Shown here piece by piece: positions 28,273-62,936 of a stretch of 64,000 bases of DNA (its first letter is position 1; every line of letters begins with the position of its first letter). Source of the stretch: Candidatus Omnitrophota bacterium (lineage in GTDB: Bacteria; Omnitrophota; Gorgyraeia; Zapsychrales; Zapsychraceae); assembly GCA_028280285.1 (NCBI GenBank), contig JANQMA010000017.1, forward strand, positions 993 through 64,992, written 5' to 3'. The notes below the pieces were generated by a model. That model saw nothing but the letters and a program-made list of their open reading frames with translations, had not been told where the DNA came from and made no database searches. Position numbers and translations under genes: made by a program.

Positions 28273-28955
28273 GTTTATCCAGATCCACTAAAAAACCGGT
28301 TCCGGTGCTTTTTGAAAATCAGCATTTTATCGTCTTTAATAAACCCGCCAGGCTTCTTGTCATCCCGTCACCGACCGAGAAAAATAATACATTAGTTAAT
28401 ATTGTGAATCGTCAGTATGCACGTAATGATGGATCGGCCAAGCTTCATCCATGCCACCGGTTGGACAAAGACACATCCGGGGCTATTTTGTTTGCCAAGG
28501 GTAAGGCCAACCAAAAGGTGATGATGGAGGAGTTTAAAGACAGGGAAATTAAAAAAGTCTATGAGGCCTTTGTGCATGGACACCCTAAAAGAAAAAAGGC
28601 ATCGATCAGTAAGCCGATCAAGTCACTGGATCAGAAGAAATTTAAGCAAACGCGGGCCAAGCCGGCTTTAACGAATTATCAAGTGAAGAAAACCTGTGAA
28701 CACTTTAGTGTCGTCGAGGCAGAGCCTGTGACCGGACGTGCTAATCAAATACGTATTCATTTCAAAGATATCGGCCATCCGCTTGTGGGGGAGCGCAAAT
28801 ACGCCATTGCGCGGGATTATCCGGTCAAATTTAAACGTGTTGCGCTTCATGCCAGCCGTTTGGAGTTTATTGATCCACATTCGCAACAGCATGTTATTGT
28901 GGATGCTCCTCTGGCGGAAGATATGAGAGAATTTTTGGAAAAAAGTGGTCCGTGA
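28269..28955 (+). CDS. RluA-family pseudouridine synthase
   Basis: HRLDKDTSGAILFAK (catalytic Asp motif), TGRANQIRIHF and HPLVGERKYA. The last three codons and the TGA stop lie inside a GTGGTC-family palindromic element. Confidence 0.8.
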   Translation: MSLSRSTKKPVPVLFENQHFIVFNKPARLLVIPSPTEKNNTLVNIVNRQYARNDGSAKLHPCHRLDKDTSGAILFAKGKANQKVMMEEFKDREIKKVYEAFVHGHPKRKKASISKPIKSLDQKKFKQTRAKPALTNYQVKKTCEHFSVVEAEPVTGRANQIRIHFKDIGHPLVGERKYAIARDYPVKFKRVALHASRLEFIDPHSQQHVIVDAPLAEDMREFLEKSGP

Positions 28956-29012
28956 TCCGTGGTCAGTGGTCGTTTTTATGTTTGATCACAGAACACAGAC
29001 CACAGATCACTA
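28944..29012. repeat. GTGGTCYGTG-family palindromic element, copy 1 (overlaps rluA stop)
   Basis: Left arm GTGGTCCGTGATCCGTGGTCAGTGGTC, right arm GATCACAGAACACAGACCACAGATCAC. Confidence 0.85.
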
Positions 29013-29030
29013 AAATAAAGGAGGCACAAG

Positions 29031-29949: not shown

Positions 29950-31974
29950 ATGGATCAATTCAAACTAGTTTCAAAATTCAAACCTGTCACCGAACAGCTG
30001 GATGCGGTCGATAAGCTCGTTCAAAACATTAAGGGCGGCACAAAAGATCAGGTTCTCCTCGGGGTAACCGGGAGCGGTAAAACATTCACCCTCGCCAATG
30101 TGATTGAGAAGATCAACCGTCCGACGCTCGTTATAAGCCACAATAAAACCCTTGCCGCTCAACTCTATAGCGAATTTAAAGAATTCTTTCCCCATAATGC
30201 GGTTGAGTATTTCGTGAGTTATTACGACTATTATCAACCGGAAGCCTATGTTCCCCAAACCGATATTTATATCGAGAAGGATGCTTCGATCAATGACCGG
30301 CTGGACCGTCTGCGTCTTGCGTCAACCACATCGCTTATGACCAGACGTGATGTTATTATTGTGGCGAGCGTTTCTTGTATTTACAATCTTGGTTCGCCTG
30401 AAGATTATGCACAGTTTTTACTTTATTTGAATGTTGGTGATGAAATTGAGCGCGATCAGGTGCTGGAGAAGCTGGTCGACATACAGTATGAACGCAGCGA
30501 TATGGATTTTAGGCGCGGTTCTTTCCGCGTGCGTGGGGATGTGGTCGAGGTTTATCCGGCATACCGGCAGGACGGCCTTAGAATTGAATTTTTCGGGGAT
30601 GAGATTGAAAAGATCAAACAAATTCATCCGCTGACAGGTGATGTGATTGCCGAACTTGATAAAATTGCCGTGTATCCGGCGAAACATTTTATCATCGGTC
30701 ATGAGCGCATTGACGCGGCCATGGTTGAAATCGAAACAGAACTGAAAGAACAACTTAAAGTATTAAATAAAAAAGGCAAGCTCGCCGAGGCGCAAAGACT
30801 TGAGTCGCGCACGAAATACGATATGGAAATGATGAAAGAGATGGGCTATTGCAACGGGATTGAAAACTATTCACGTGTCTTATCCGGCCGCCCACCGGGG
30901 TCCAGGCCGTATTCGCTCATTGATTATTTCCCGGACGATTTTGTAACGCTGATTGATGAGTCGCATGTAACCGTTCCACAGGTTAACGGGATGTATAACG
31001 GCGACCGCGCGCGTAAAACAACGCTTGTTGATTATGGTTTCCGTCTGCCGTCGTGTTTGGATAATCGTCCGCTTAAATTTGCTGAATTTGAAAAATTAAT
31101 CAGTCAGACTATTTATGTCTCCGCTACACCCGGGCCTTATGAGCAGAAAAAAGGCAAAGGAAATCTGGTCGAGCAGATTATCCGTCCGACGGGGATTGTT
31201 GATCCGCCGATTGAAGTGCGCAAGACCGAAGGGCAAATCGATGATTTGATGAATGAAATCAAAAAGCGGGCCAAGGCCAATGAGCGTGTGCTGGTTACAA
31301 CGCTGACCAAACGAATGTCGGAAGATTTAACGGAGTATCTGCAGGATAACAGTATTAAGGTAAAATATTTGCATTCCGACATTGAAACCATTGATCGTAC
31401 GAAAATCCTGCAGGATCTGCGGCTTAAAAAATATGACTGCCTTGTCGGGGTTAACCTTTTGCGTGAAGGTTTGGATTTGCCGGAAGTCTCTCTTGTGGCG
31501 ATACTCGATGCGGATAAGCAAGGCTTTTTACGTTCGCAGACTTCACTCATTCAAACAGCCGGGCGCGCTGCGCGTAATGTCAACGGCATTGTTATTATGT
31601 ATGCCGATACGATAAGCCAAGCGATGAAAGATACGATGGCCGAGTGTGAGCGCCGGCGTAAGATCCAACTCGCGTTTAATAAAAAGCATAATGTCACACC
31701 GCAGACGATTAAGCGGGCTATCCGCCAGGGAATTGAAGTGTTGGCCGACGAGGTCGAAGAAGTGGTGCTTGATGCGGCCGGCCAGGACAAAGAAGAGTTT
31801 GCTTTTGCCAATTCAATTGCCGCACTTGAACGGGAAATGGAAAATGCGGCGCGCAATTTACAATTTGAGAAAGCCGCCAAGTTTCGTGATAGAATAAAAG
31901 CATTACAGGAAAGCCTCGGGGAGCCGTTGGCCGAGCCGAGCGTGCGTAGGCGAAGAAAGAAATCTAAAAAGTGA
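29950..31974 (+). CDS. uvrB: excinuclease ABC subunit B
   Basis: Walker [10 protein letters not shown], helicase motifs, the UvrB beta-hairpin region and a C-terminal UVR domain ([27 protein letters not shown]). The stop codon lies inside a palindromic element. Confidence 0.95.
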
Positions 31975-32030
31975 TCAGTGGTCTGTGATCACAAATATTA
32001 ACTGACCACAGAACACAGACAACAGACCAC
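31969..32030. repeat. GTGGTCYGTG-family palindromic element, copy 2 (contains the uvrB stop codon)
   Basis: GTGATCAGTGGTCTGTGATCAC ... GACCACAGAACACAGACAACAGACCAC. Confidence 0.85.
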
Positions 32031-32037
32031 AAATATT

Positions 32038-34987: not shown

Positions 34988-35011
34988 TTCCTTGCGCAGG
35001 AAATAGATAAA

Positions 35012-35083
35012 TGGTGGTCTGTGTTCTGTGGTCTGTGTTCAGTTAAATGAACGACTGATCACAGATCACGGACCACAGATCAC
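35012..35083. repeat. GTGGTCYGTG-family palindromic element, copy 3 (intergenic, after groEL)
   Basis: GGTGGTCTGTGTTCTGTGGTCTGTGTTC ... GATCACAGATCACGGACCACAGATCAC. Confidence 0.85.
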
Positions 35084-35242
35084 ATAATATCACTAAAACC
35101 AGTCATTCTCGTGGCTGGTTTTATTTATATATTGACTTTTCAAAAAAATACGGTATCATATATGCTTATAATTTAGACTTAGGTTTTCTCTATATTAGAG
35201 ACTTAAGTTTATATATATCAATGGTTTAGAAAGGATTCACCC

Positions 35243-38519: not shown

Positions 38520-41500
38520 GTGAAACGCACTCACTGGACATATAGATGCATTGCACTTGTCGTAAGCTGTTTATTTACAGTTACTTCGATAAATCCCGTC
38601 TATGCCCAGATGCAACCTACCCAGGCCATTGCTCCTAAACCATTGCCTTTAAATGTGTTAAGTCAACCCTATGAACCGATTTTGATCAAAGGCCTTAAGG
38701 TCAATCAGACCAATCCATTTGAGATGGAGTTTATTGTAAGTGATCCGTGGTCCGTGGTCCGTGGTCAGCGGAATACTGATCACAGACCACAGAGCACAGA
38801 CCACCTAGAGCAGGAGTCTACTCAATTAATTAAATACTTCCTTGCCGCTTTAACCACTCCCGAGCAAGACATGTGGGTCAACCTATCCCCGTATGAGAAG
38901 AATCGGATTATTCCAGAGTCATTTGGTCGGACAGAAATGGGACGGGAGCTGCTTGTACAGGACTATCTTTTAAAACAGGTTACAGCATCATTGCTTCATC
39001 CGGATGGGGAGTATGGACAAGAGTTTTGGAGTAAAATAGCAACCCAAACATCGGAGGACATACCATTAGAATTATTCAATAAGGTCTGGATCATGCCGGA
39101 TAAAGCGGTGGTGTATGAGAATGAAGGGATAGCGTATGTGGTAGAGGCGAGTCTTAAGGTTATGTTGGAGGAAGATTACCTTGCGCAGCAAAAGAGTGGT
39201 CCGTGGTCCGTGGTCAGTGATCTGTCAAAAAATACGACCACAGATCACAGAACACAGACCACACAAATCATTCGTGAAACAATCATTCCCGCTATCGAAA
39301 CCGAGGTCAACAATAGCAAGAATTTCGCCAAGCTCCGCCAGATCTATCACAGCCTCATCCTGGCGACATGGTACAAGAAAAAGATGCAAAACGCGATTTT
39401 AACCCAAGTCTATGCCGATCAAAACAAGACTAATGGTGTAAGCCACAATGATCCTAAAGCAGCTGAAAAAATCTGGCAAGAGTACACCAAGACATTTAAA
39501 GAAGGGGCGTATAACTTTATCAAAGAAGAATACGATCCACAGACTCAGCAAATCGTTCCACGGAAGTATTTCAGCGGGGGGATGGCGATGGAGGTTGTGC
39601 TATCAGAACCGGCAGCGCTTACATCACAACAACAAGAGACTATTCCCGACAACGCCTACCTCGTCCGTGTTGCGTTAAACGAATTGACTCCCGATTCTGA
39701 TAGCGCGGCAATGGTTAAGAAAAAATCAGCGGATGATTTTAAATATAATGTCAATATAAGGACCCCCAAATTACAGGATCAACTCCCAGGGTTAGCAAAA
39801 AAACGGGAACAGACAAAGAAGGCACTTATTGGTTATTTCAATCAAATGATACATCATAATCCATTTGAAATGCCGAAATTTAATGTGAATTATAATCGAA
39901 TCATGCATTTACTACGACATATGATAGGGTTTGATGCTATTGGATTCTCATTTTCTGAACAAGATCCTGATGGCTTTATTACAAAAGCTGCGGTTTCTAA
40001 TGTGCTTATCCCTTTAATTGAACAAACAAAATTTCCTTTGTCTGTTGACCGTATGACACAATTTGTATTAGAGGCAAATTTAGATAATGAACGTCAGTTT
40101 AAATATATCGAAGCGCTTAATGATTTTAAAGTTTTTGCTACTTCTTATTCGGAAGGCGCCGAAAACGCAGCGTTGACAGCGCCCGCTCCCGACCCCGCCG
40201 TGATGACGCAAGAGGAACAACTTTCTATCGATCCGGCATCACTTGCTGAGTTAGCATTGGCTATGACTGAAAAGGATGTTCAAGATATCGCTGAAGTAGC
40301 CCGGTTGATAAAACAGAACTCCGATCATTATGCAAAAATATTGCTCAAAGAATATAACCAAACCAAAGACCAATTCAAAAATCGAGAAGAAATAATAAAG
40401 ATTGACGCTGTTGTAGACGATCCGACAATCCAGAAATTAATAAAAATATTTAAACGGATAAGCCGTAAAACAGGGAAAGAAAACAGCCGTAATGTTTCGC
40501 GTAGTTTAATGGGCTTAATTTATTTCTATAAATATATAACATATTTATATAAGCCCAAATATCAAATGGATGTTATAAGTGACATATCATTAAATATACT
40601 TTTGGGGGATATAATTAGGGAAAGCAATACTAAGAGAGGCCTTAAATCTTCCACCATTCCTATAGAAGATCAAATGCGCAATGTTGTTTTAGATTTTGCC
40701 GATAATTTAGGCAATTTGGTTGGGCGGATCAATGCACTGCCAAAAGCGAACACTACAGAGTTTGCACAAGTGTGGGCCTCTATGATTAATGAGGATAATT
40801 TTACCAGGGCAGATCTTTATCAGAACATAAAATCTTTTGGCAGGGTTTTAGAAGCGCGACGCGGGCGTTTTTTAACATTCTTAAGAGCAGACCGCAGCTT
40901 AACACGTGAAGCAAAAGAAACGTTGATTCTAAAAGCGCTTGCAATGAATCAAGAAGGGAAGGATCCAAAGGCAATTGTGGATGAATTAATGCAAGTGTGG
41001 ATTCCTCAATTTAAACGCAGTGAAGCAATATATGGTGTGCTAAGGATGACCGGCTGGGAATCAGAAATTCATAGATACCAATGGGGTGAATATGCAAAAT
41101 ATGCCCCTTTTCCTGTTCGGGAAATCACCAATGTCTACCGGGATATTGTTGGTATGCATTTAGATCCTCATATTTCCTCACATGATTGGACAGAGTATGT
41201 CGGACGTCCGGCACTCTCCTGGTTTGTTCAGTGGAAAAAAATAGAAGCCATGACTCAATTGAGTTTTATACCACTTGAAGATCCGGATGGTAATTTGATT
41301 TACAATGATTTGCAGGTTAATGGGGTTATCCCCGAGGAAATTTTAAAACTTGTTTATAAGGACGTTCATCCGCTGGCAACTATTTCCGGTACAGAAGATA
41401 AAAAGTGGAGGACGGAACGATGGCAGTTATATAAGGGCCATTACTATCCACCACTCGAAAGTGAATGGATAGAGTTTGTCAAAATGCTGCTCTATTCCTC

Positions 41501-44500
41501 CCAAAATCGCTTGAAGAGTAGACGAGGCAATCATGATGCTGTCATTGTAAAGCACGCTTATAATTTAAAAATAGGCAACCTTCGTTATGATCTGTATCAG
41601 TCAAATAATTTATGGAGGCTGCAGTATCCGTATGGAGATATATCTGATCTTCCATTTTCTGATTATGGGAAGAGCCTGCAGACAGCACAAGTTCTACATG
41701 GCTTGATGATGCATCATCTTGTTGTTAAGTATGGTCTCATTAATAATGCTCCGGCTGAACATCATGATTTTATTATGCGTTTATCTGATATGTGGCAAAG
41801 TTTTGAAAACGATCTTGAGGAAACTCTTCAAAACCGGGGTTATACGCGAGAGAATTTGCGTTTGCATGTTTTGTCGAATGCTCATGGAGTCGATGGTATT
41901 AAATATCTTAGGGAATTGTTTATTAATCGTATATTTCGATTACGTGAAAAGAAAGTTACTGAGGAAATACGTAATCTTGTCGAGTCGACCCTCACTGAAG
42001 TGGATGATGTTTTAACGGAAGAATATGAAAAGAGAAAGGACGTCGAAAACGCGGCATTGATTAAACAGCGTCCAGCGTTGAGCGTAGAGCGTATAGCGGA
42101 TAGTGATATTAATCTAACCGCTAAACGCCATCCGCTAGACACTAAAACCGACCCCGCCGCGATGGTGAAACAAAATTTGGCGAACATTGACCAAAATATT
42201 TATGAGGATATTGTAGACCATCTTCTATGGCATAAGCCAAATGTGATTGTAAAAGATCATTATCGCGATATTTTAGCGCGGTTTATTCACGATAATAGAA
42301 AAAAAGAAAAAAAATTCTGGTCTCGTGAGGGTAAAAAAATATTTTCCAAAGAGCAGGTGCGCACTTTATTGGAATCTTGGCCCGGAAATAATATGCAATA
42401 TAAAGCACATGTTAATTCTTCGGGGAATAGAGAAATATCAATCATATTGCATCAAAAAATTAAACCGACTTTTACTATTGATCTTACATTTAAGAGAGAC
42501 GGACAGGTTAAGCTAGGTAAACAGTTTAAATCGCATCAAAACTATATAGTGGATAGATTAGAAGAGAGTTATGGGATCGACCGTATTGAAGCCCGTGTGA
42601 TTGCACAAATAGCACGTCGTTATTGGTTTAAAAGTGTTTTTATCCCTATGCTGCGCGAGATGGAAATTGACCATCTGCATGGTAAAAAAATAGATGAAAA
42701 ATCAACATTTTTCGCAGAGATGGGTTTTAAAGACGGTGTTTTATCTGTCGACCCCGCCGCGATGGCGGAGCAGGAGCAAGAGTCCAAAAAAGATCAATCC
42801 GCTCCGGTGTCTTTCAATGTTGGCGATGAATTGAGGAGGATTTATCATAATACAACACGTCCTAAAATTTTCAAAGTAGAAAAATGGCCTGGGCAGGCTA
42901 TACAACTACGAATGGAAGAGGATCCTCTTCCACGAGATAAACCGCCTAATTCTATTACTGATGAGGATTTGACATATCGCATATACGCATCGGTCACACA
43001 TGGGAAATCCGCGTTCTACTATCCTGTAGCGATGCGTTCGGGTATTTTTTACAAAAATGATATTGTTGATTTAACAAAAGGCTGGCAAATTACTTATAAT
43101 TACCCGGCCGTCTATAAGCTTATTCAAAACTACCGAGATAAGAATGGATATGCAAGTTATTTGGAGGCGATTGATCATCTATTAGAAAACGATGAAGAAA
43201 CCCGTAAATATGAGAAACATTTAATTAACCAAATCATTTCTTTGTTTCCGATTTTGCAAATTTTTTATGGGTTTTCATCAGATGAGCAAGTGGATGAGTA
43301 TTTTAACCAGGCCCCTCAACAATTAGAAAATAAAGGTATTGCCTCGGCTTTACTTGAATATTTAGGAAGTTATTTACCGGTTGGAACAAAAGTCAAAATT
43401 ATCGGAGCGAATCGGCCGACCGTAGAAGCTCTTAATAAGGGAACGGTATTTGAAGATACATTGCTCGGGAAAATGTATACGCGTATCGGATTTAAAGTTT
43501 TATCTATTGAACAAAAAGACGGACAAAATCCAATTGTTGTTTTCCAGAAGACAAAAAATGTAAAACCACGCGCTAAGTGGAAAGATGTAACGAAGTTAGG
43601 AGGTCACGTTTTATCCGTAGAGAGCGGTGTCGTTTCTGATTCCGAAGGTGTCGAAAACGCTGCATTGAGCAAAGTTGTCCCTGACTCTGCCGTAATGGTC
43701 GGTTTGAAAACGGATCCAATAGAGTTATCCATGGTGGAAGAAAACTATATTAGACTTTTAATAGAAAATAATTACCAGAAACAAACTTTTCAGGTGATGA
43801 TTAACGATATTAAAGATCCTGATCGAATTCACCAGCTTATGACGGAAGTCTTAAAGCGAAAAGGGTATTATCGACCAGAGATCAATAATTTTAATGATAG
43901 AAGTAGGTTTCCTTTGGAGGTTCCAGGTGATAGAGGGCTTATTTTAACGTCTATGGGTGATGGTAATGAAGATATTTTAAGATTTACGGTTGAAAGTAAT
44001 AATGTGATTATGTGGAAGCGTCCTAAAATTGGTGGTTCAAAATTGGGTGTTGCACCGGTTGCCTATGTTTGGTGGGCAACTCATCCAGAAATTAGAAAAG
44101 AGTTGTCCGGGAAGCCAATGAAGGGGTATAAGGCAGATTATAGGCAGGGGAGGGCTCTTGAAAAAGCATGGATTTTTAAAATTGCCTTACCCGATGGAGC
44201 TAAAGATTGGAACAAATATGATTATTCAGGTTCTTTTCCTGTTTGGCAAAAAGATTTAAAACAAAACGTCGAAAACGCGGCGTTGACAGAGCCTGCTCCC
44301 GATCCCGCCGCGATGGCGAAGCAGGAATTTGAACGGACTGATTCAGCGGTAGTTGCAGATCAGGAAGGACAATATATTATCCCTGGTTTTGATATTATAA
44401 AATATTCGGTTGATTCTTATGATCAAGAAAATCGAGAAGCAAGAGAAAGTCGAGAGGCAAGATATGAATTGAATGATTGGCAAGAAGGTGTTGTATTGGC

Positions 44501-46034
44501 TCAAATTGAAAATATCATTATGCAGGCACAAGAAATTGGCGATATAGATATGGAAAATTATTTAATATATGTTTTGGAACAAGGAGTTAAAAAATTTATT
44601 AAATCTGATACGTCAGAATATATTCAGGCAGTAGGTAAAACAAAAATGGACGGTCGTGAAGTTGTTTCAATAGCCGAGGAATTACTTAATCAATCAAGAT
44701 CTGATGATGACGTGAAATTATTGGTTAAATTGGTTTTAATCCATGAATTTAATCATATTCTTGATCACAAATTAAATCGTTTATCATTAAACATTATGAA
44801 ATTAGTTGACATAAATCTTATAGAACGTTCGGCCTTGATTCGTTCAGCTGCATATTTTGATGGATTTATAAAGAAAGAAGGCGATGGATTAAATGATTTT
44901 ATTGTCATGTACCGATTTGATGGCGATAAAATTATGGCTTATACTTCAACAAATTCGGAAATATCTTCTGTGAAATCAGATTATCAAAAGCCACCTGTTA
45001 TCATGCCTGGGGAAAATCGGTATACATATTATGATCAATTAGCTAGAAAAGGAAATATTGTAACGTCTGAAGAAACTGGGTCTATATATTATTATGAGTC
45101 ATATAGAAAAGGGGGTGATGACACTACACTGGAAAAAAATGGTGTCGTTTCTGAAAAAAATGGTGTCGTTTCTGATTCCGAAGGTGTTGAAAACGCTACG
45201 TTGGCAAAGGGCGCTTCCGACAATGCCGCGATGGCGGATAATTCAGATAGTGATGAGGTTTTTATAGAACAAGATAATTATACTTTTAAATATCGACGAC
45301 CAACACAAATAGCAATGGCTTCGGTAACAGTGATGAATCCCAAAGGAGTTCATGGTGGTCCTTCACAATATATAACGGGTTTGGTTAAATCGTATCAAGA
45401 TATTTGGCCACTAACGATTAAAATGAAATTTAAGGGTGAATACATTGATACGAATGATGTGAAAAATATTATGGAATTGAAAATAAAACAAGGTGATGTA
45501 TTGGAAATAGAGATGTTTGGGAGTGAAGAAGGGGCTTTAAAGTTTGTGCAAAGTATGGCCGCAAGGGTAGCTGATTCTGAAACACGTAAAAAGTATGAAG
45601 CGAAAATCACAAGACAGCCATTAAATGAGGATGACGCAGCATTGACTAAAGGTGGTATAGACTTCGACGCCTCCAAAATGGATCTAGAGATTCGGACGGA
45701 ACAAAGCCAGATGCTCGATGCTCGCCCGCCCCGCCGCTTCGCGGCGGAAGCTGCGGGCCGGGGATGCTCGATGCTAGAGGACGAAGAGTTGCGAAAAGAG
45801 TGCCTTACTAACACCTCTAGTGGTATACAGTTTAAGTTTACTCCCCAACAGATTGAGGGGATGCGCCAGAATATTACGGGCTTTAATCCGGTGATTATTA
45901 ATATCCAGCCGATTGTGAACTTGCCGTTGTTTTTGGGGTTGAATGATATTGAGGACGCGCCGGATGAGACAGAAACGGTAGAGGCAGATGGTCAGGATCT
46001 TTTAGCAAGAATGGAGGAGTATTCATATAACTAG
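38520..46034 (+). CDS. giant secreted protein (2504 aa) of unknown function, with repeated ENAAL..PAPDPAAM modules and an HEFNH motif
   Basis: Uninterrupted 7.5-kb ORF in an AT-rich genome. Signal peptide MKRTHWTYRCIALVVSCLFTVTSINPVYA-Q. HExxH at about nt 44745 (LVLIHEFNHILDH). Contains three in-frame palindromic-element insertions and 6-7 GC-rich repeat modules. Confidence 0.8.
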   Translation: MKRTHWTYRCIALVVSCLFTVTSINPVYAQMQPTQAIAPKPLPLNVLSQPYEPILIKGLKVNQTNPFEMEFIVSDPWSVVRGQRNTDHRPQSTDHLEQESTQLIKYFLAALTTPEQDMWVNLSPYEKNRIIPESFGRTEMGRELLVQDYLLKQVTASLLHPDGEYGQEFWSKIATQTSEDIPLELFNKVWIMPDKAVVYENEGIAYVVEASLKVMLEEDYLAQQKSGPWSVVSDLSKNTTTDHRTQTTQIIRETIIPAIETEVNNSKNFAKLRQIYHSLILATWYKKKMQNAILTQVYADQNKTNGVSHNDPKAAEKIWQEYTKTFKEGAYNFIKEEYDPQTQQIVPRKYFSGGMAMEVVLSEPAALTSQQQETIPDNAYLVRVALNELTPDSDSAAMVKKKSADDFKYNVNIRTPKLQDQLPGLAKKREQTKKALIGYFNQMIHHNPFEMPKFNVNYNRIMHLLRHMIGFDAIGFSFSEQDPDGFITKAAVSNVLIPLIEQTKFPLSVDRMTQFVLEANLDNERQFKYIEALNDFKVFATSYSEGAENAALTAPAPDPAVMTQEEQLSIDPASLAELALAMTEKDVQDIAEVARLIKQNSDHYAKILLKEYNQTKDQFKNREEIIKIDAVVDDPTIQKLIKIFKRISRKTGKENSRNVSRSLMGLIYFYKYITYLYKPKYQMDVISDISLNILLGDIIRESNTKRGLKSSTIPIEDQMRNVVLDFADNLGNLVGRINALPKANTTEFAQVWASMINEDNFTRADLYQNIKSFGRVLEARRGRFLTFLRADRSLTREAKETLILKALAMNQEGKDPKAIVDELMQVWIPQFKRSEAIYGVLRMTGWESEIHRYQWGEYAKYAPFPVREITNVYRDIVGMHLDPHISSHDWTEYVGRPALSWFVQWKKIEAMTQLSFIPLEDPDGNLIYNDLQVNGVIPEEILKLVYKDVHPLATISGTEDKKWRTERWQLYKGHYYPPLESEWIEFVKMLLYSSQNRLKSRRGNHDAVIVKHAYNLKIGNLRYDLYQSNNLWRLQYPYGDISDLPFSDYGKSLQTAQVLHGLMMHHLVVKYGLINNAPAEHHDFIMRLSDMWQSFENDLEETLQNRGYTRENLRLHVLSNAHGVDGIKYLRELFINRIFRLREKKVTEEIRNLVESTLTEVDDVLTEEYEKRKDVENAALIKQRPALSVERIADSDINLTAKRHPLDTKTDPAAMVKQNLANIDQNIYEDIVDHLLWHKPNVIVKDHYRDILARFIHDNRKKEKKFWSREGKKIFSKEQVRTLLESWPGNNMQYKAHVNSSGNREISIILHQKIKPTFTIDLTFKRDGQVKLGKQFKSHQNYIVDRLEESYGIDRIEARVIAQIARRYWFKSVFIPMLREMEIDHLHGKKIDEKSTFFAEMGFKDGVLSVDPAAMAEQEQESKKDQSAPVSFNVGDELRRIYHNTTRPKIFKVEKWPGQAIQLRMEEDPLPRDKPPNSITDEDLTYRIYASVTHGKSAFYYPVAMRSGIFYKNDIVDLTKGWQITYNYPAVYKLIQNYRDKNGYASYLEAIDHLLENDEETRKYEKHLINQIISLFPILQIFYGFSSDEQVDEYFNQAPQQLENKGIASALLEYLGSYLPVGTKVKIIGANRPTVEALNKGTVFEDTLLGKMYTRIGFKVLSIEQKDGQNPIVVFQKTKNVKPRAKWKDVTKLGGHVLSVESGVVSDSEGVENAALSKVVPDSAVMVGLKTDPIELSMVEENYIRLLIENNYQKQTFQVMINDIKDPDRIHQLMTEVLKRKGYYRPEINNFNDRSRFPLEVPGDRGLILTSMGDGNEDILRFTVESNNVIMWKRPKIGGSKLGVAPVAYVWWATHPEIRKELSGKPMKGYKADYRQGRALEKAWIFKIALPDGAKDWNKYDYSGSFPVWQKDLKQNVENAALTEPAPDPAAMAKQEFERTDSAVVADQEGQYIIPGFDIIKYSVDSYDQENREARESREARYELNDWQEGVVLAQIENIIMQAQEIGDIDMENYLIYVLEQGVKKFIKSDTSEYIQAVGKTKMDGREVVSIAEELLNQSRSDDDVKLLVKLVLIHEFNHILDHKLNRLSLNIMKLVDINLIERSALIRSAAYFDGFIKKEGDGLNDFIVMYRFDGDKIMAYTSTNSEISSVKSDYQKPPVIMPGENRYTYYDQLARKGNIVTSEETGSIYYYESYRKGGDDTTLEKNGVVSEKNGVVSDSEGVENATLAKGASDNAAMADNSDSDEVFIEQDNYTFKYRRPTQIAMASVTVMNPKGVHGGPSQYITGLVKSYQDIWPLTIKMKFKGEYIDTNDVKNIMELKIKQGDVLEIEMFGSEEGALKFVQSMAARVADSETRKKYEAKITRQPLNEDDAALTKGGIDFDASKMDLEIRTEQSQMLDARPPRRFAAEAAGRGCSMLEDEELRKECLTNTSSGIQFKFTPQQIEGMRQNITGFNPVIINIQPIVNLPLFLGLNDIEDAPDETETVEADGQDLLARMEEYSYN
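38741..38804. repeat. GTGGTCYGTG-family element, copy 4, in frame inside the giant ORF
   Basis: GATCCGTGGTCCGTGGTCCGTGGTCAGCGGAATACTGATCACAGACCACAGAGCACAGACCAC, translated as DPWSVVRGQRNTDHRPQSTDH. Confidence 0.85.
39196..39263. repeat. GTGGTCYGTG-family element, copy 5, in frame inside the giant ORF
   Basis: GTGGTCCGTGGTCCGTGGTCAGTGATCTG...GACCACAGATCACAGAACACAGACCAC, translated as SGPWSVVSDLSKNTTTDHRTQTTQ. Confidence 0.85.
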
Positions 46035-46066
46035 TGATAGAGTGATAAAGTGGTAGTAGTGATAGG
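46032..46066. repeat. GTGATAGAGTGATAAAGTGGTAG-family repeat copy directly after the giant-ORF stop
   Basis: CTAGTGATAGAGTGATAAAGTGGTAGTAGTGATAGG shares the tandem unit with 54638-54678. Confidence 0.65.
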
Positions 46067-51681: not shown

Positions 51682-52956
51682 ATGGGTAAAAGTTTTAGTT
51701 TACCAAGAGGAACCGCCGATATTCTTCCATCTGATATTACCGCTTGGCGGTATTTGGAGTCTAGCGCGCGTCAATTTTTCTCTGTTTACAATTACAAGGA
51801 AATCAGGACACCCAACTTTGAGGAAACCGAGCTGTTTGCCCGCTCCATGGGACAGAGTAGCGATGTTGTGCAAAAGCAGATTCTGTCGCTTCGGTCCCAA
51901 AAGGCTGATGCCGCTGAAGACAGCGGGTTGGCGCTCAGACCCGAAGGCACGGCGTCTGTGGTCCGTTCCTATATCCAGAATAATGTGGACCGCAAGGAGT
52001 CTTTAAGTAAATATTTCTATATCGGGCCGATGTTTCGCGGTGAACGTCCGCAAAAGGGGCGCTTGCGCCAGTTTCATCAAATGGGTGTTGAGGCGATCGG
52101 GCCTGATTCAGCCTCTCCTTATCTGGATGCCGAGGTTATTGCCCTGGCGGTTAATCTGCTTAAAGGTTTGGGTCTTAAAGGGTTTACACTTAAGATCAAT
52201 ACATTAGGCTCAAAAGAAGATAAAGAGGCCTTTTCTAAGAAATTAAGAGAAGATTTAAAGCCGCATTTGGCCAAATTGTCCGATGAGTCCAAGCAGCGTT
52301 ATGAACGTAATGTTTTTCGTATCTTAGACAGCAAATCTAAAGAAGATAAAGCAATTGTAAAGAACTTAAAGCTTGATCATTCGTATCTTTCCAAAGAAAG
52401 TTTGGATTATTACACCAAGGTCAAAGAAAATTTAACGGCGCTGGGTGTTGCGTTTGAAGAATCGGTTGATTTGGTACGCGGACTTGATTATTACACGCAT
52501 ACAGTGTTTGAAATTTGTGATTCGTCACTTGGTGCGCAGGATGCGCTTGGAGCCGGCGGGCGTTACGGGACGCTGGTTGCGCAGCTTGGCGGCAGCGATA
52601 ATGTGGAAGCGATCGGTTTTGCGCTTGGCATGGAGCGAATACTGCTTGCTTTGGGCAAAGTGGATATTAAGCAAAGTGCACTAGATACCTTTGTGATCGC
52701 CATGGATGATGCAGCGGTGTCCTATGCCTTTCATGTATTAAATAAATTGCGTGCAAGCAATATCAGTGCCGATATGCATTTTAAAGGCGGTTCGGCGAAA
52801 AGCCAGATGCGAATCGCTAATAAGTCCGGCGCACGTTTTACAGTGATTATCGGTGCACAAGAAGTTCAAAATAAAACCGTAACCTTGAAGGATATGGATT
52901 CGGGGGAGCAGGAAGAACTCGCGCTACAGGAAGCGATAAGTAAAATAAAAAGTTAA
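51682..52956 (+). CDS. hisS: histidine--tRNA ligase
   Basis: Class II motifs (RGTADILP, FRGERPQKGRLRQFHQ, GGGRYG) and a C-terminal anticodon-binding domain. Confidence 0.92.
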   Translation: MGKSFSLPRGTADILPSDITAWRYLESSARQFFSVYNYKEIRTPNFEETELFARSMGQSSDVVQKQILSLRSQKADAAEDSGLALRPEGTASVVRSYIQNNVDRKESLSKYFYIGPMFRGERPQKGRLRQFHQMGVEAIGPDSASPYLDAEVIALAVNLLKGLGLKGFTLKINTLGSKEDKEAFSKKLREDLKPHLAKLSDESKQRYERNVFRILDSKSKEDKAIVKNLKLDHSYLSKESLDYYTKVKENLTALGVAFEESVDLVRGLDYYTHTVFEICDSSLGAQDALGAGGRYGTLVAQLGGSDNVEAIGFALGMERILLALGKVDIKQSALDTFVIAMDDAAVSYAFHVLNKLRASNISADMHFKGGSAKSQMRIANKSGARFTVIIGAQEVQNKTVTLKDMDSGEQEELALQEAISKIKS

Positions 52957-53228
52957 AAGTAAAAATTAAAAAAGAAAATTTAAAATTTAAAGAAACTGAG
53001 AAATAAAAAATAAATTAAAAATTGTATTTGGTAATTGGTATTTAGTAATTGGAGGTTAATGATTTATAAATTAGTTTCATAACGAAAACATGATTTCGAA
53101 AAATTCTATTTCAATGCTTTTATTAACTAATTACCAATTACTAACGACCAAATACAATTTTAATTTTTAAATTTATTTAACTTTTAAATTTTCTTTTTTA
53201 ATTTTTATTTCTCATTTTTAAATTATTT
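52957..53228. repeat. Long (about 270 bp) AT-rich imperfect palindrome (MITE-like) filling the hisS-aspS intergenic region
   Basis: Outer arms AAAATTAAAAAAGAAAATTTAAAA / TTTTAAATTTTCTTTTTTAATTTT. Inner arms AAAATTGTATTTGGTAATTGGTATTTAGTAATTGG / CCAATTACTAACGACCAAATACAATTTT. Confidence 0.75.
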
Positions 53229-53246: not shown

Positions 53247-54635
53247 ATGTTAAGAACACACACCTGTGGAGAACTAAGAAAAGAACACGCCGATCAAGAG
53301 GTTACTTTGTGCGGATGGGTTGACGGACGCCGTGATCATGGAAAATTGATCTTTATTGATATCCGTGACCGATATGGCAAAACACAAGTGGTGTTTGTCC
53401 CGGCTGTCAGTAAAGAAGCGCACGCGGTGGCCGAAAAGTTAGGCCCTGAATATGTGGTGAAGATCACCGGTAAGGTTGTGGCGCGTCCGGACAAGCTAGT
53501 GAATAAAGACTTATCAACAGGCGAAGTTGAACTTTGCGCCGAAGGTTTAGAAATTCTAAATGAAAGTAAAACGCCGGTTTTTGAAATCAATGATGATGTT
53601 GATGTCGGTGAAGAACACCGCTTGACCTATCGCTATTTGGATTTGCGTCGTTCGAAAGTATTACAAGCATTAGAATTGCGTCACAGACTATGCGCTGCGA
53701 TTCACACATTTCTTGATCAAGAAGGATTTTTTGAAATTGAAACACCGGTTTTAACCAAATCAACGCCGGAAGGCGCGCGCGACTTTTTGGTGCCGGCCCG
53801 TCTCAATCCGGGCAGTTTTTATGCGCTGCCGCAGTCACCACAGCTTTTTAAACAAATGCTCATGGTTTCCGGTCTTGATAAATATTATCAAATTGTAAAG
53901 TGTTTCCGCGATGAGGACCTGCGGGCCGACCGTCAGCCGGAGTTCACACAGCTTGATATGGAGATGTCCTTTGTTAATGAAGAAGATATTTTTGATGTGA
54001 CTGAACGTATGTATAAGGCAATTTTTAAAGAAGTTAAGGGGATCGATATTCCGACGCCTTTCCCGCGCATGACGCATGCTGAGGCCATGGCCAAATACAA
54101 TTCCGATAAACCGGATTTACGCAAAGACACAAACGATGTCAATGAGTTTGCCTTTGTTTGGATTACGGAGTTTCCGATGTTTTTTAAAGACGAGGATTCC
54201 GGCCGCTGGGTGAGCGAGCATCATCCGTTTACGTCTCCTTCGGTTGAGGATATCGCAGAACTGGATCGCGAGGATAAAAGCAATATTCCGTCACGCGCTT
54301 ATGATTTGGTACTTAATGGGAACGAGATTGGCAGTGGTTCGGTGCGTATTCATAAAAAAGAACTGCAGCAGAAAATATTTGATATAATAGGTCTCGATGG
54401 GGAAGAGGCCGAAAAACGTTTCGGCTTTCTCTTAAGAGCATTTGAATACGGTGCTCCGCCGCATGCGGGTGTTGCTTACGGGGTCGACAGACTCGTTGCG
54501 ATTTTATCAGGCCTTGATTCGATCCGGGATACGATTGCTTTTCCAAAGACGCAAAAGGGAAGCTGTTTGGTAACTGATGCGCCGAGTGATGTGGATGGCG
54601 GACAATTAAAAGATCTTGGGTTAAGAACGTTATAA
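53247..54635 (+). CDS. aspS: aspartate--tRNA ligase (compact 462-aa form lacking the bacterial GAD insertion)
   Basis: N-terminal OB fold (MLRTHTCGELR...GWV...GKLIFIDIRD), class II motifs (FRDEDLRADRQPEFTQLDME, GSGSVRIH, GGVAYGVDRL). Confidence 0.88.
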   Translation: MLRTHTCGELRKEHADQEVTLCGWVDGRRDHGKLIFIDIRDRYGKTQVVFVPAVSKEAHAVAEKLGPEYVVKITGKVVARPDKLVNKDLSTGEVELCAEGLEILNESKTPVFEINDDVDVGEEHRLTYRYLDLRRSKVLQALELRHRLCAAIHTFLDQEGFFEIETPVLTKSTPEGARDFLVPARLNPGSFYALPQSPQLFKQMLMVSGLDKYYQIVKCFRDEDLRADRQPEFTQLDMEMSFVNEEDIFDVTERMYKAIFKEVKGIDIPTPFPRMTHAEAMAKYNSDKPDLRKDTNDVNEFAFVWITEFPMFFKDEDSGRWVSEHHPFTSPSVEDIAELDREDKSNIPSRAYDLVLNGNEIGSGSVRIHKKELQQKIFDIIGLDGEEAEKRFGFLLRAFEYGAPPHAGVAYGVDRLVAILSGLDSIRDTIAFPKTQKGSCLVTDAPSDVDGGQLKDLGLRTL

Positions 54636-54637
54636 AA

Positions 54638-54843
54638 AGTGATAAAGTGATAAAGTGATAAAGTGGTAGAGTGATAAAAAGGTTAAAGGTTTTAGGTTAG
54701 AGGTGAAAATAAATTTTTATTTTAACCCTTCACCTTCAACCTTTAACCAACAGTATTATTTTGATCTTTATTGTTTTTAAATTTTTTACTAGCACTTTAT
54801 CACCAATTGTTACTTTACTTATGAGTATCACTCTATCACTAAT
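54638..54843. repeat. Composite nested palindrome after aspS: GTGATAAAGTG tandem-repeat arms flanking a GGTTAAAGGTTTTAGGT-family element
   Basis: 54638-54678 (GTGATAAAGTGATAAAGTGATAAAGTGGTAGAGTGATAAAA), then 54680-54748 (GGTTAAAGGTTTTAGGTTAGAGGTG ... CACCTTCAACCTTTAACC), then 54792-54843 (CACTTTATCACC ... ATCACTCTATCACT, inverted). Confidence 0.75.
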
Positions 54844-57900: not shown

Positions 57901-58318
57901 AGGCGAAGGGATAAAAAGCGCTGCGCTTGATCTTGCCTTCGTTACCGCACAAAAGATACGTTCGATTAATAGCAAATATTTAAATCATCATTATGTGACG
58001 GATGTTATTACGTTTGATTACGGTGGTCCGTGGTCTGTGGTCCGTGGTCGGAGTCCTAAAATTAATACACAGAAAACAGACCACAGAAAACAGACCACTT
58101 TAAATGGTGAAATTATTATTTCCACCGATGCGGTCAGGCAGAATGCGCGCAAGTTTAAAACCAGTGAGGCATATGAGCTTGCGCTTTATCTCGTGCATGG
58201 CATTTTGCATTTGTTGGGGTATGATGATAAGACAGTGAAAGATAAGGCGGTCATGCGTGAGGCGGAGGAGAGGGTAATGGGGTATTTGGGTAAAAAAATA
58301 GATAAGGTAAACGCATGA
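57818..58318 (+). CDS. ybeY: rRNA maturation endoribonuclease YbeY carrying an in-frame palindromic-element insertion of about 25 aa
   Basis: Zinc-binding HGILHLLGYDD motif. Insert GGPWSVVRGRSPKINTQKTDHRKQTTLNG lies between VITFDY and EIIISTDAV. Confidence 0.85.
   Translation: MDIQIENLQKKIILKPIPIKNLVQTVLKGEGIKSAALDLAFVTAQKIRSINSKYLNHHYVTDVITFDYGGPWSVVRGRSPKINTQKTDHRKQTTLNGEIIISTDAVRQNARKFKTSEAYELALYLVHGILHLLGYDDKTVKDKAVMREAEERVMGYLGKKIDKVNA
58023..58098. repeat. GTGGTCYGTG-family element, copy 6, in frame inside ybeY
   Basis: GGTGGTCCGTGGTCTGTGGTCCGTGGTCGGAG...CACAGAAAACAGACCACAGAAAACAGACCAC. Confidence 0.85.
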
Positions 58319-62452: not shown

Positions 62453-62841
62453 TGACGCAGTCCCGTTACGATAAGGGGTGGGAGACGCTTGGCAATATTA
62501 ATAGTGAAGCGGGCGAACGCATCCTTAATATGCTTAAAGATATCAGTCCTGATATGGCCAAGCTTGTCATTGAGTTTCCCTATGGCGATATCTGGTCGAG
62601 AAAAGGCCTTGATATTAAAACGCGGGAATTGATTACCATTGCATCGTTGACAACATTGGGATTCCCCAAAGATCAGCTTAAGGCACATACGCACAATGCC
62701 CTTAATGCGGGTTGCAGTAAAGAAGAGATCATTGAGGTGGTTATGCAGATGAGTGTTTATGCGGGATTTCCGGCGGCGCTTAATGCGATGTTTGTGGTGA
62801 AGGAGGTCCTGGAGAGCAGGGGCTTGCTTGAGAATAGCTAA
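62452..62841 (+). CDS. carboxymuconolactone decarboxylase (AhpD-like) family protein
   Basis: TRELITIASLTTLGFPKDQLKAHTHNALNAGCSKEEIIEVVMQMSVYAGFP matches the CMD-family core. The start overlaps the upstream stop by 1 nt. Confidence 0.7.
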   Translation: MTQSRYDKGWETLGNINSEAGERILNMLKDISPDMAKLVIEFPYGDIWSRKGLDIKTRELITIASLTTLGFPKDQLKAHTHNALNAGCSKEEIIEVVMQMSVYAGFPAALNAMFVVKEVLESRGLLENS

Positions 62842-62842
62842 T

Positions 62843-62913
62843 GGTGGTCTGTGTTCCGTGTTCTGTGTTCTGTATCGTTCCAAGATGACCACTGACCACA
62901 GATCACAGACCAC
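62843..62913. repeat. GTGGTCYGTG-family palindromic element, copy 7 (intergenic, after the CMD gene)
   Basis: GGTGGTCTGTGTTCCGTGTTCTGTGTTCTG ... GACCACTGACCACAGATCACAGACCAC. Confidence 0.85.
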
Positions 62914-62936
62914 TATTATCTAGTTCATACAGCGAG

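Follow-up and report, generated by a model that had tools for sequence, protein, structure and literature searches.

Repeated ENAAL/DPAAM sequences of a giant Omnitrophota gene lie at the module junctions of a secreted modular protein

In this study, we analysed a stretch of 64,000 nucleotides from a Candidatus Omnitrophota bacterium (contig JANQMA010000017.1, forward strand; hereafter the window), in which a GC-rich sequence encoding a peptide of the type ENAAL...DPAAM is repeated several times within one giant open reading frame (ORF). We found that these repeats are a peptide junction motif, which stands between the modules of a secreted Omnitrophota protein of modular build. All of the repeats are hosted by a single 7.5-kb ORF on the plus strand (38520-46034), whose product is 2,504 aa long and begins with a signal peptide. 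This product is identical to the protein P0001 and has more than 2,147 homologues, of which the named ones come nearly all from Omnitrophota. The reading as a whole, by which the repeats mark the module boundaries of a modular polyprotein and are probably sites of its processing, is one that we hold with moderate confidence.

The junction motif and the modules that it separates

Relaxed patterns recovered 14 half-sites, which form eight boundaries (Table 1) and all lie in the P0001 reading frame. The copies listed in the first-pass annotation are present within 1-2 nt of where it had placed them and in the frame of the ORF, and three further sites were absent from its list, namely EPAAL at 39606, DPASL at 40230, and DDAAL at 45630. 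The 17-18-nt probe GAAAACGCNGCGTTGAC, with three mismatches or fewer, gave six matches against 0.47 expected by chance, and the 17-18-nt probe CCCGAYCCCGCCGYGATG gave four against 0.07. A six-frame scan of the 64-kb window detected no [E/D][N/D]A[A/T]L or D[P/S/N]A[A/V]M outside the ORF.

The repeats that had been described are therefore real in their coordinates, their frame, and the 5' extension common to two copies, but their identity, GC content, and inverted repeat had been overstated. The extension is 96% identical between 43626-43653 and 45162-45189, and a third copy of it, shifted in tandem by 21 nt, was found at 45141-45168. The identity of about 85% at the DNA level holds for the copies at 40158 and 44268 (86%), but the full 51-nt copies overall show 61-86%. 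The GC content, which had been put at about 35% for the ORF and about 60% for the copies, was measured at 39% and 48-77%, respectively. The inverted repeat CGCGGCG/CGCCGCG is perfect in the copy at 44268 and in no other copy, and the four full copies showed no unusual RNA folding and no shared fold (z = -1.1 to +0.6).

By its sequence features, the ORF product is a member of an unnamed Omnitrophota family of modular proteins with an N-terminal framework domain (N-domain) and a GGIDL-type C-terminus. It carries the signal peptide and the N-domain of about 350 aa ending with KYFSGG, the C-terminus of the form GGIDL...GFxPVIINIxP...FLGL, and a boundary motif of the D-x-A-M type. The homologues match only the N-terminal 13-20% of the query, plus the C-terminal region, whose family consensus is GGIDL...IKFHxDPAMLxQLQNAPGFxPVIINIQP, with DxAM preceding GGIDL. 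The cargo between these conserved ends is highly diverse and includes methyltransferases, HATPase, GNAT, HAD, REC, PPDK, triose-phosphate isomerase, radical SAM, and others. A scan of the genome collection with the N-domain recovered at least 80 Omnitrophota loci, with a best identity of 49-54% among the matches listed; the members range from 1,000 to 4,400 aa, and several paralogs are found per genome.

Across the family, the core of the motif is [D/E]-x-A-(A/M)-[L/M] followed by a small residue, and it is positioned after the N-domain, between every pair of modules, and before GGIDL. Since ENAAL and DPAAM both correspond to an acidic residue followed by x-A-A-[L/M], the P0001 boundaries carry a doubled motif, which at most of them takes the form [V]ENAAL-x5-D-x-A-[A/V]-M. 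The arrangement xxAAL-x5/6/10-DPAAM was also found in P0002 and P0007. A set of 68 complete family proteins, all of other genomes, contained D.A[AMVT][LM] 85 times, compared with 11.8 expected. D.AM was found within 50 aa after YFSGG in 105 of 214 relatives, compared with 8 of 214 in a random control window, and within 25 aa before GGIDL in 67 of 186 relatives. The residue directly after D.AM[LM] was a small one (S, G, A, T, or V) in 78% of the cases against a background of 31% (p = 2e-33).

The form of the motif is common to the paralogs of one genome and different between genomes (chi-square contingency p = 1e-17). DxAML was found in 34 copies in three proteins of one metagenome-assembled genome (MAG) and in 17 copies in six proteins of another, and a third MAG has D.AVL, while other MAGs carry SSP[V/I] in 13, 7, and 7 copies. 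Counted per genome, DxAML and SSP[VI] occurred in the proportions 34:0, 17:1, and 10:0 on the one hand and 0:13, 0:7, and 1:7 on the other hand. Both TCN and AGT codons occur for the first Ser in SSP[V/I], and both CTN and TTG for the Leu in DxAML. The use of both codon families for these residues indicates that selection acts on the peptide. The flanks of the motif and its x position are freely variable. In the structure models, most of residues 349-400, which surround boundary 0, had a confidence score pLDDT (predicted local distance difference test) of less than 50, and the values near boundary 7 were 50-54.

The position of the motif relative to recognisable domains was consistent in seven proteins, in which the Pfam envelopes never contained the motif and always fitted between consecutive motifs. 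The envelopes concerned are HPr in P0001; deaminase, UDPGP, and REC in L039, L052, and L080; and isocitrate lyase, aldolase, malate synthase, three-domain PPDK, methyltransferase, REC, and helix-turn-helix (HTH) in L010, L003, and P0030. Four REC domains were tested, and they start 2-6 residues past the motif. We roughly estimate that chance alone would produce such avoidance with a joint probability of about 1e-4. Whether the repeats sit at domain boundaries had been proposed as a check in the first-pass annotation, and they do.

The modules, which are often whole enzymes, act as exchangeable cassettes. Those of P0001 have no homology to one another. Module 2 (M2) recurs in P0004, P0005, and P0122, and module 4 (M4) recurs in P0008, in each case with [D/N]xAM on both flanks and with different neighbouring modules. 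P0122 is a minimal member, consisting of the N-domain, DRAML, M2, NEAMI, and GGIDL. The half-site DPASL571 of P0001 aligns with DRAML and DAAMI in the M2 homologues, so the ENAAL-x5-DPAVM of boundary 1 sits just upstream of an older degenerate junction. P0002 has the N-domain (64%), the C-domain, and the linker IENAALTEAAPDSAAM in common with P0001, but no module. A search with the middle region of P0001 gave two homologues; module homologues were found for M2 and M4 only, of seven modules, and few module families underlie the boundary statistics. A peptide recurring at the same positions in homologous proteins, with diverged DNA, argues against a DNA-level element; the core motif does recur in this manner at the M2 and M4 boundaries, where the DNA was compared for two homologues. 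The architecture of the family is a signal peptide with the N-domain of about 350 aa, a series of junction-module units, a final junction, and the GGIDL C-terminal region.

The two framework domains have no model in Pfam or NCBIfam. The AlphaFold2 (AF2) model of the N-domain reached a pLDDT of 72.7, with a helix at residues 5-24, and found no fold match in the PDB. The C-terminal region was predicted as mostly coil without a compact fold (predicted template modelling score, pTM, 0.29). Family genes commonly form tandem arrays, in which a 20-kb locus contains 3-5 paralogs (L043, L048, L028, L039), and in one MAG adjacent family members are each longer than 3,000 aa.

Codon usage and GC content of the junctions

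Of 12 synonymous codons, the copies at 40158 and 44268 share nine, where 4.2 would be expected (p = 0.0014), a result that becomes marginal under linker-specific codon usage (p = 0.07). In the GVVSDSEGVENA extension at 43626 and 45162 (boundaries 4 and 6), 11 of 12 codons are identical (p = 1e-4). The linkers differ from the other regions in their codon usage: AAC is used at 0.67 in the linkers, whereas its usage in the N-domain, other genes, and the modules is 0.28, 0.30, and 0.18, respectively; CCC is used at 0.64 compared with 0.19, 0.08, and 0.09; and TTG at 0.60 compared with 0.14, 0.18, and 0.25, in the same order. The diverged copies have other codons, with CTT in EPAAL363 and GAT ... 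GCG GCA in DSAAM394. As the copies form such a graded series, specific codons are not required. The codon sharing among the younger copies indicates recent duplication or short-tract gene conversion. We consider it probable that the extended form of 15-17 residues is young and lineage-specific and has been spread and homogenised by one of these processes, and the younger copies would share their codons because this happened recently. Linker 6 is immediately preceded by a tandem duplication of 21 nt (GGTGTCGTTTCTGAAAAAAAT / GGTGTCGTTTCTGATTCCGAA) at 45141-45182; this shows duplication to be active locally and points to recent slippage or duplication at the linker.

An exhaustive search of 1.84 billion protein representatives with a 30-aa linker profile found P0001 and one spurious repeat protein only. 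The back-translated pattern ENAA[L/F]-x5-DxA[A/V]M found no Omnitrophota copy in metagenome contigs, and a word-indexed protein search with the doubled linker gave no candidate. With no other copy returned by the profile and back-translated searches, the 17-residue extended form appears private to the P0001 lineage. The back-translated pattern also had 38 metagenome matches, which proved to be unrelated proteins, such as an aldo-keto-reductase-like 'ENAALFDFxLDxAAM'.

The peptide composition together with the gene-wide codon usage predicts a GC content of 47-60% for the copies. It suggested that their GC-richness is mainly a matter of Ala/Pro/Asp composition, to which is added a framework GC content at third codon positions (GC3) above that of the cargo modules. 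In P0001, the N-domain and the C-domain have GC3 values of 0.49 and 0.55, compared with 0.31 for the modules, and the corresponding family means (64 genes, L001-L080) are 0.53, 0.52, and 0.43. In 58 of 64 family proteins, GC3 is higher in the N-domain than in the middle region. The D and A of the motif favour GC-ending codons family-wide (p = 2e-5 and 3e-15). The Ala before the motif Met is GCC or GCG in 79% of the cases against 68% of other Ala-Met pairs, and the preference of the motif is partly a general context effect of Ala before Met. Selection for translational accuracy at conserved residues was considered as the sole cause of the high GC3 and was rejected, as the whole N-domain is raised irrespective of column conservation (0.49-0.51 against 0.40-0.41 expected). 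This regional rise fits GC-biased conversion among paralogous framework segments, or a cargo that is AT-rich because it is foreign or under relaxed selection. It is the AT-rich cassettes that sit between framework segments, and not GC-rich elements that were inserted into an AT-rich gene.

Possible processing and competing explanations

In relatives, signal peptides of the twin-arginine translocation (Tat), general secretory (Sec), and lipobox types start at the motif Met in 18 of 643 cases, compared with 44 of 8,440 other internal Met (p = 1.5e-7). Examples are the Tat signal peptides DRAM-MTRRNFLSSSVAAGIGL and DPAAM-NRRKFVKTAVSAAGA and the lipobox signal peptide DPAM-KSSKTIKNGIIGAIAAAITSSLSGC. 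The proteins and loci in which module signal peptides begin at the junction Met include P0007, P0073, P0074, P0032, P0115, L004, L023, and L052. As the modules are often whole enzymes, these signal peptides make a module resemble a complete precursor protein that starts at the motif Met. Such module signal peptides may account for the internal 'transmembrane (TM) helices' reported in giant proteins of the Omnitrophota.

The genome-specific forms across non-homologous modules, the small residue that follows, and the disordered context make recognition in trans the most likely function of the junction. A factor co-evolving with the motif, most likely a protease, would recognise the junction and cut the polyprotein at or beside the A-M/A-L bond, and the complete module proteins would be released. 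We put forward this recognition and cutting as a tentative explanation, with a chance somewhat short of even. A wider proposal is somewhat less probable: the modular and giant Omnitrophota proteins would be true polyproteins, in effect fused operons, in which complete proteins, some of them with signal peptides of their own, are linked by a short junction peptide; its form would co-evolve with a processing protease encoded by the genome, and the young copies would record an ongoing exchange of cassettes.

Several observations weigh against recognition and processing of the junctions. No peptidase was found in P0001 by Pfam or NCBIfam, and the only candidate is a module with an HExxH motif, whose match to Tox-MPTase3 has E = 0.017. 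The N-domain has no recognisable fold, and the cleavage is something we infer. The signal peptides after the motif are possibly non-functional relics of gene fusion, and lineage-specific expansion with concerted evolution could give genome-specific forms without a trans factor. Fixed codons (AAC 5/5, TTG 6/6, GCC 6/7, CCC 4/4) stand beside variable third positions of Ala, and some constraint at the nucleotide level remains conceivable. The check for copies outside the gene family covered the 56 kb flanking the ORF only.

The repeats could instead be passive Ala/Pro-rich flexible linkers that serve as recombination junctions, in which DNA microhomology allows cassette swaps between paralogs while the protein remains an intact multi-enzyme scaffold. 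The shuffling of modules among members that retain the framework, the codons shared by the younger copies, the regionally raised framework GC3, which fits GC-biased gene conversion among paralogous segments, and the predicted disorder of the linkers are all in agreement with this. However, in most lineages the core is 4-5 residues long (12-15 nt), its codons vary, and its flanks are unrelated, so that it is too short there for homologous recombination. The invariant D, A, and M/L with a small residue is also not generic Ala/Pro, and neither the genome-specific forms across non-homologous modules nor the signal peptides that begin at the motif Met are explained. We therefore regard a purely passive linker as unlikely. 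An even weaker case can be made for internal translation starts, by which separate module proteins would also be made from a stop-less message, with ATG in DxAM/DPAAM and TTG in ENAAL as start codons. The motif does end in Met, complete signal peptides begin there, the Leu of all six [E/D]xA[A/T]L sites in the codon comparison is TTG against 26% gene-wide, and GCC/GCG is preferred before the Met. On the other hand, no Shine-Dalgarno-like sequence lies upstream, where CCCGACCCCGCCGCG is found instead; the SSP[V/I] form has no Met, its codons being GTT, GTA, GTC, ATT, and ATA; the diverged EPAAL has a CTT Leu; and the residues upstream of the Met are conserved as amino acids. These observations make internal starts very improbable.

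The first-pass annotation had offered two interpretations of the repeats, namely a third class of in-frame-inserting DNA element, or homogenised linkers at recombination junctions or processing sites. The mobile or self-copying element would resemble the Rickettsia palindromic element (RPE) and would have been inserted repeatedly into the ORF. In its favour, the extended cassette looks like an addition at the M2 boundary, where it lies upstream of the older degenerate DPASL, codon sharing is above expectation, and genuine in-frame palindromic elements occur in the same ORF. RPE, repetitive extragenic palindromic (REP) sequences, and miniature inverted-repeat transposable element (MITE) insertions have in common with the ENAAL/DPAAM copies that all are repeated in-frame stretches of 50-150 nt within coding sequence. 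The copies differ from them in having no palindrome, hairpin, stable fold, or terminal repeats and no intergenic copies in the window, on either strand. They occur in one gene, in a single frame and orientation, and at module boundaries only. The extended profile is absent from the protein representatives and the metagenome contigs, and the core is an ancient phylum-wide peptide motif, kept across hundreds of proteins with varied codons. An element of this kind is extremely improbable, and this half of the earlier interpretation was not upheld. Its other half was essentially borne out by the location at domain boundaries, the recurring modules, and the shared synonymous codons, with the cleavage itself remaining an inference.

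The multifunctional autoprocessing RTX toxins (MARTX) of Vibrio contain unstructured inter-module linkers, which are cut after Leu before a small residue to release the modules. By analogy, the MARTX architecture is probably the nearest functional counterpart of the P0001 family, and the VENN/DPxGL demarcation motifs come second. MARTX and the P0001 family alike consist of very large exported proteins, conserved at the N- and C-termini and variable in the centre, where unrelated modules are exchanged between relatives, and the family motif likewise ends in L/M with a small residue next to it. In contrast to MARTX, no glycine-rich RTX repeats (no Pfam match) and no Peptidase_C80 cysteine protease domain (no Pfam or NCBIfam match) were found in P0001, and it has a Sec-type signal peptide instead of a type I secretion signal. 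The junction of the family is also a defined motif, D-x-A-M/A-L/M, with a genome-specific form; its modules are enzymes and regulators of the housekeeping type, some of which bring a signal peptide of their own, and their release is proposed from sequence.

In polymorphic toxins, the demarcation motifs are VENN in CdiA (PT-VENN) and PxxxxDPxGL in Rhs, and this border is thought to favour the swapping of modules. As in our family, these are short conserved peptides that border a constant region and exchangeable modules, and VENAAL is superficially VENN-like. No segment of P0001 gave a PT-VENN (PF04829) match at E <= 1, Pfam gave no Rhs or FHA match, and no immunity gene was present among the genes checked beside the ORF (guaB, guaA, a PIN-domain gene, and dnaE). 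Polymorphic toxins have one junction per protein, whereas the family has many, and its modules are not recognisable toxins. Literature text searches for the motif strings returned nothing relevant.

The Omnitrophota have very many large and giant proteins that link cytoplasmic-type enzymes behind a signal peptide, and these proteins may stay intact or be cut. Giant 'multi-enzyme' proteins of at least 10,000 to 20,000 aa have been reported in this phylum, and their post-translational cleavage has been proposed (Nielsen & Lui 2026, bioRxiv 10.64898/2026.06.07.730766; West-Roberts et al. 2023, bioRxiv 10.1101/2023.11.21.568195). West-Roberts et al. noted that information on the cleavage points is lacking, and neither paper describes a conserved N/C framework or a junction motif. 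The P0001 family comes from the same phylum, has methyltransferase, HATPase, GNAT, HAD, REC, PPDK, and radical SAM cargo in common with the giant proteins, and, like them, combines a signal peptide with internal hydrophobic segments. A short motif that is enriched, lies at boundaries only, has a genome-specific form, and is directly followed by signal peptides provides concrete candidate cleavage sites. It also provides a rule for splitting Omnitrophota modular proteins into modules for structure prediction and annotation.

Other features of the ORF and the window

The coordinates of the boundaries, the framework domains, and other features are collected in Table 1. HPr is the sole Pfam-recognisable module of P0001. 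Module 6 (44316-45188, aa 1933-2223) contains the HExxH motif (LIHEFNHILDH) with the sub-threshold Pfam match to Tox-MPTase3 and may be a metallopeptidase module.

Table 1. Positions of the junction boundaries and of other features in the window
Feature	Position (nt)	Strand	Remark
Boundary 0: EPAAL363 (39606-39620) and DSAAM394 (39699-39713)	39606-39713	+	Junction of N-domain and module 1; 'weaker copy' of the first-pass annotation
Boundary 1: AENAAL-TAPAP-DPAVM (40158-40208; ENAAL548, DPAVM558) and degenerate DPASL571 (40230-40244)	40158-40244	+	
Boundary 2: VENAAL (42042-42059; ENAAL1176) and DPAAM1211 (42150-42164)	42042-42164	+	Split by imperfect palindrome
Boundary 3: DPAAM1411	42750-42764	+	Lone half-site
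Boundary 4: GVVSDSEG-VENAAL-SKVVP-DSAVM (ENAAL1712, DSAVM1722)	43626-43700	+	
Boundary 5: VENAAL-TEPAP-DPAAM (ENAAL1918, DPAAM1928)	44268-44318	+	
Boundary 6: tandem 21-nt duplication (NGVVSEK/NGVVSDS), then EG-VENATL-AKGAS-DNAAM (ENATL2224, DNAAM2234)	45141-45236	+	
Boundary 7: DDAAL2371	45630-45644	+	Half-site, two residues before GGIDF
Conserved N-terminal framework domain	38520-39581	+	Ends KYFSGG; 218 matches, invariant columns
Conserved C-terminal framework region (GGIDF ... GFNPVIINIQP ... FLGL)	45651-46031	+	144 matches
HPr (phosphotransferase system, PTS, phosphocarrier) domain	45321-45533	+	Between boundaries 6 and 7; PF00381, E = 1.7e-7 on isolated module
REP-like copies between long ORFs	28941-29016, 31971-32036, 35010-35089, 58019-58104, 62840-62919		
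REP-like copies in frame in the N-domain of the giant ORF	38736-38810, 39192-39268		Encode SDPWSVVRGQRNTDHRPQSTDH and SGPWSVVSDLSKNTTTDHRTQTT

The ENAAL/DPAAM repeats are a feature at the protein level and should not be pooled with the in-frame palindromic elements of the same gene. A REP-like palindromic family (GTGGTCYGTGRTC... / ...GAYCACAGACCAC; also written GTGGTCYGTG.../...CACAGACCAC) is present in the window. Both of its in-frame copies lie where the family consensus of the N-domain is variable, and in contrast to the ENAAL/DPAAM repeats, it looks like a genuine in-frame DNA element. The palindrome that splits boundary 2 (42066-42146, about 81 nt) encodes KQRPALSVERIADSDINLTAKRHPLDTK. 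A 142-nt region around it folds better than shuffled sequences (z = -2.66), and no second copy was found in the window.

Tandem 8-nt repeats (AGTGATAA/AGTGGTAG) were observed at 46033-46054, where they overlap the last two bases of the stop codon of the giant ORF and run downstream, and at 54638-54683, where they begin directly after an ORF ending at 54635. A large AT-rich inverted repeat with 74-nt arms, which are 80% complementary and 134 nt apart, occupies 52943-53224; its first arm starts in the 3' end of hisS (51682-52956), and the repeat extends downstream.

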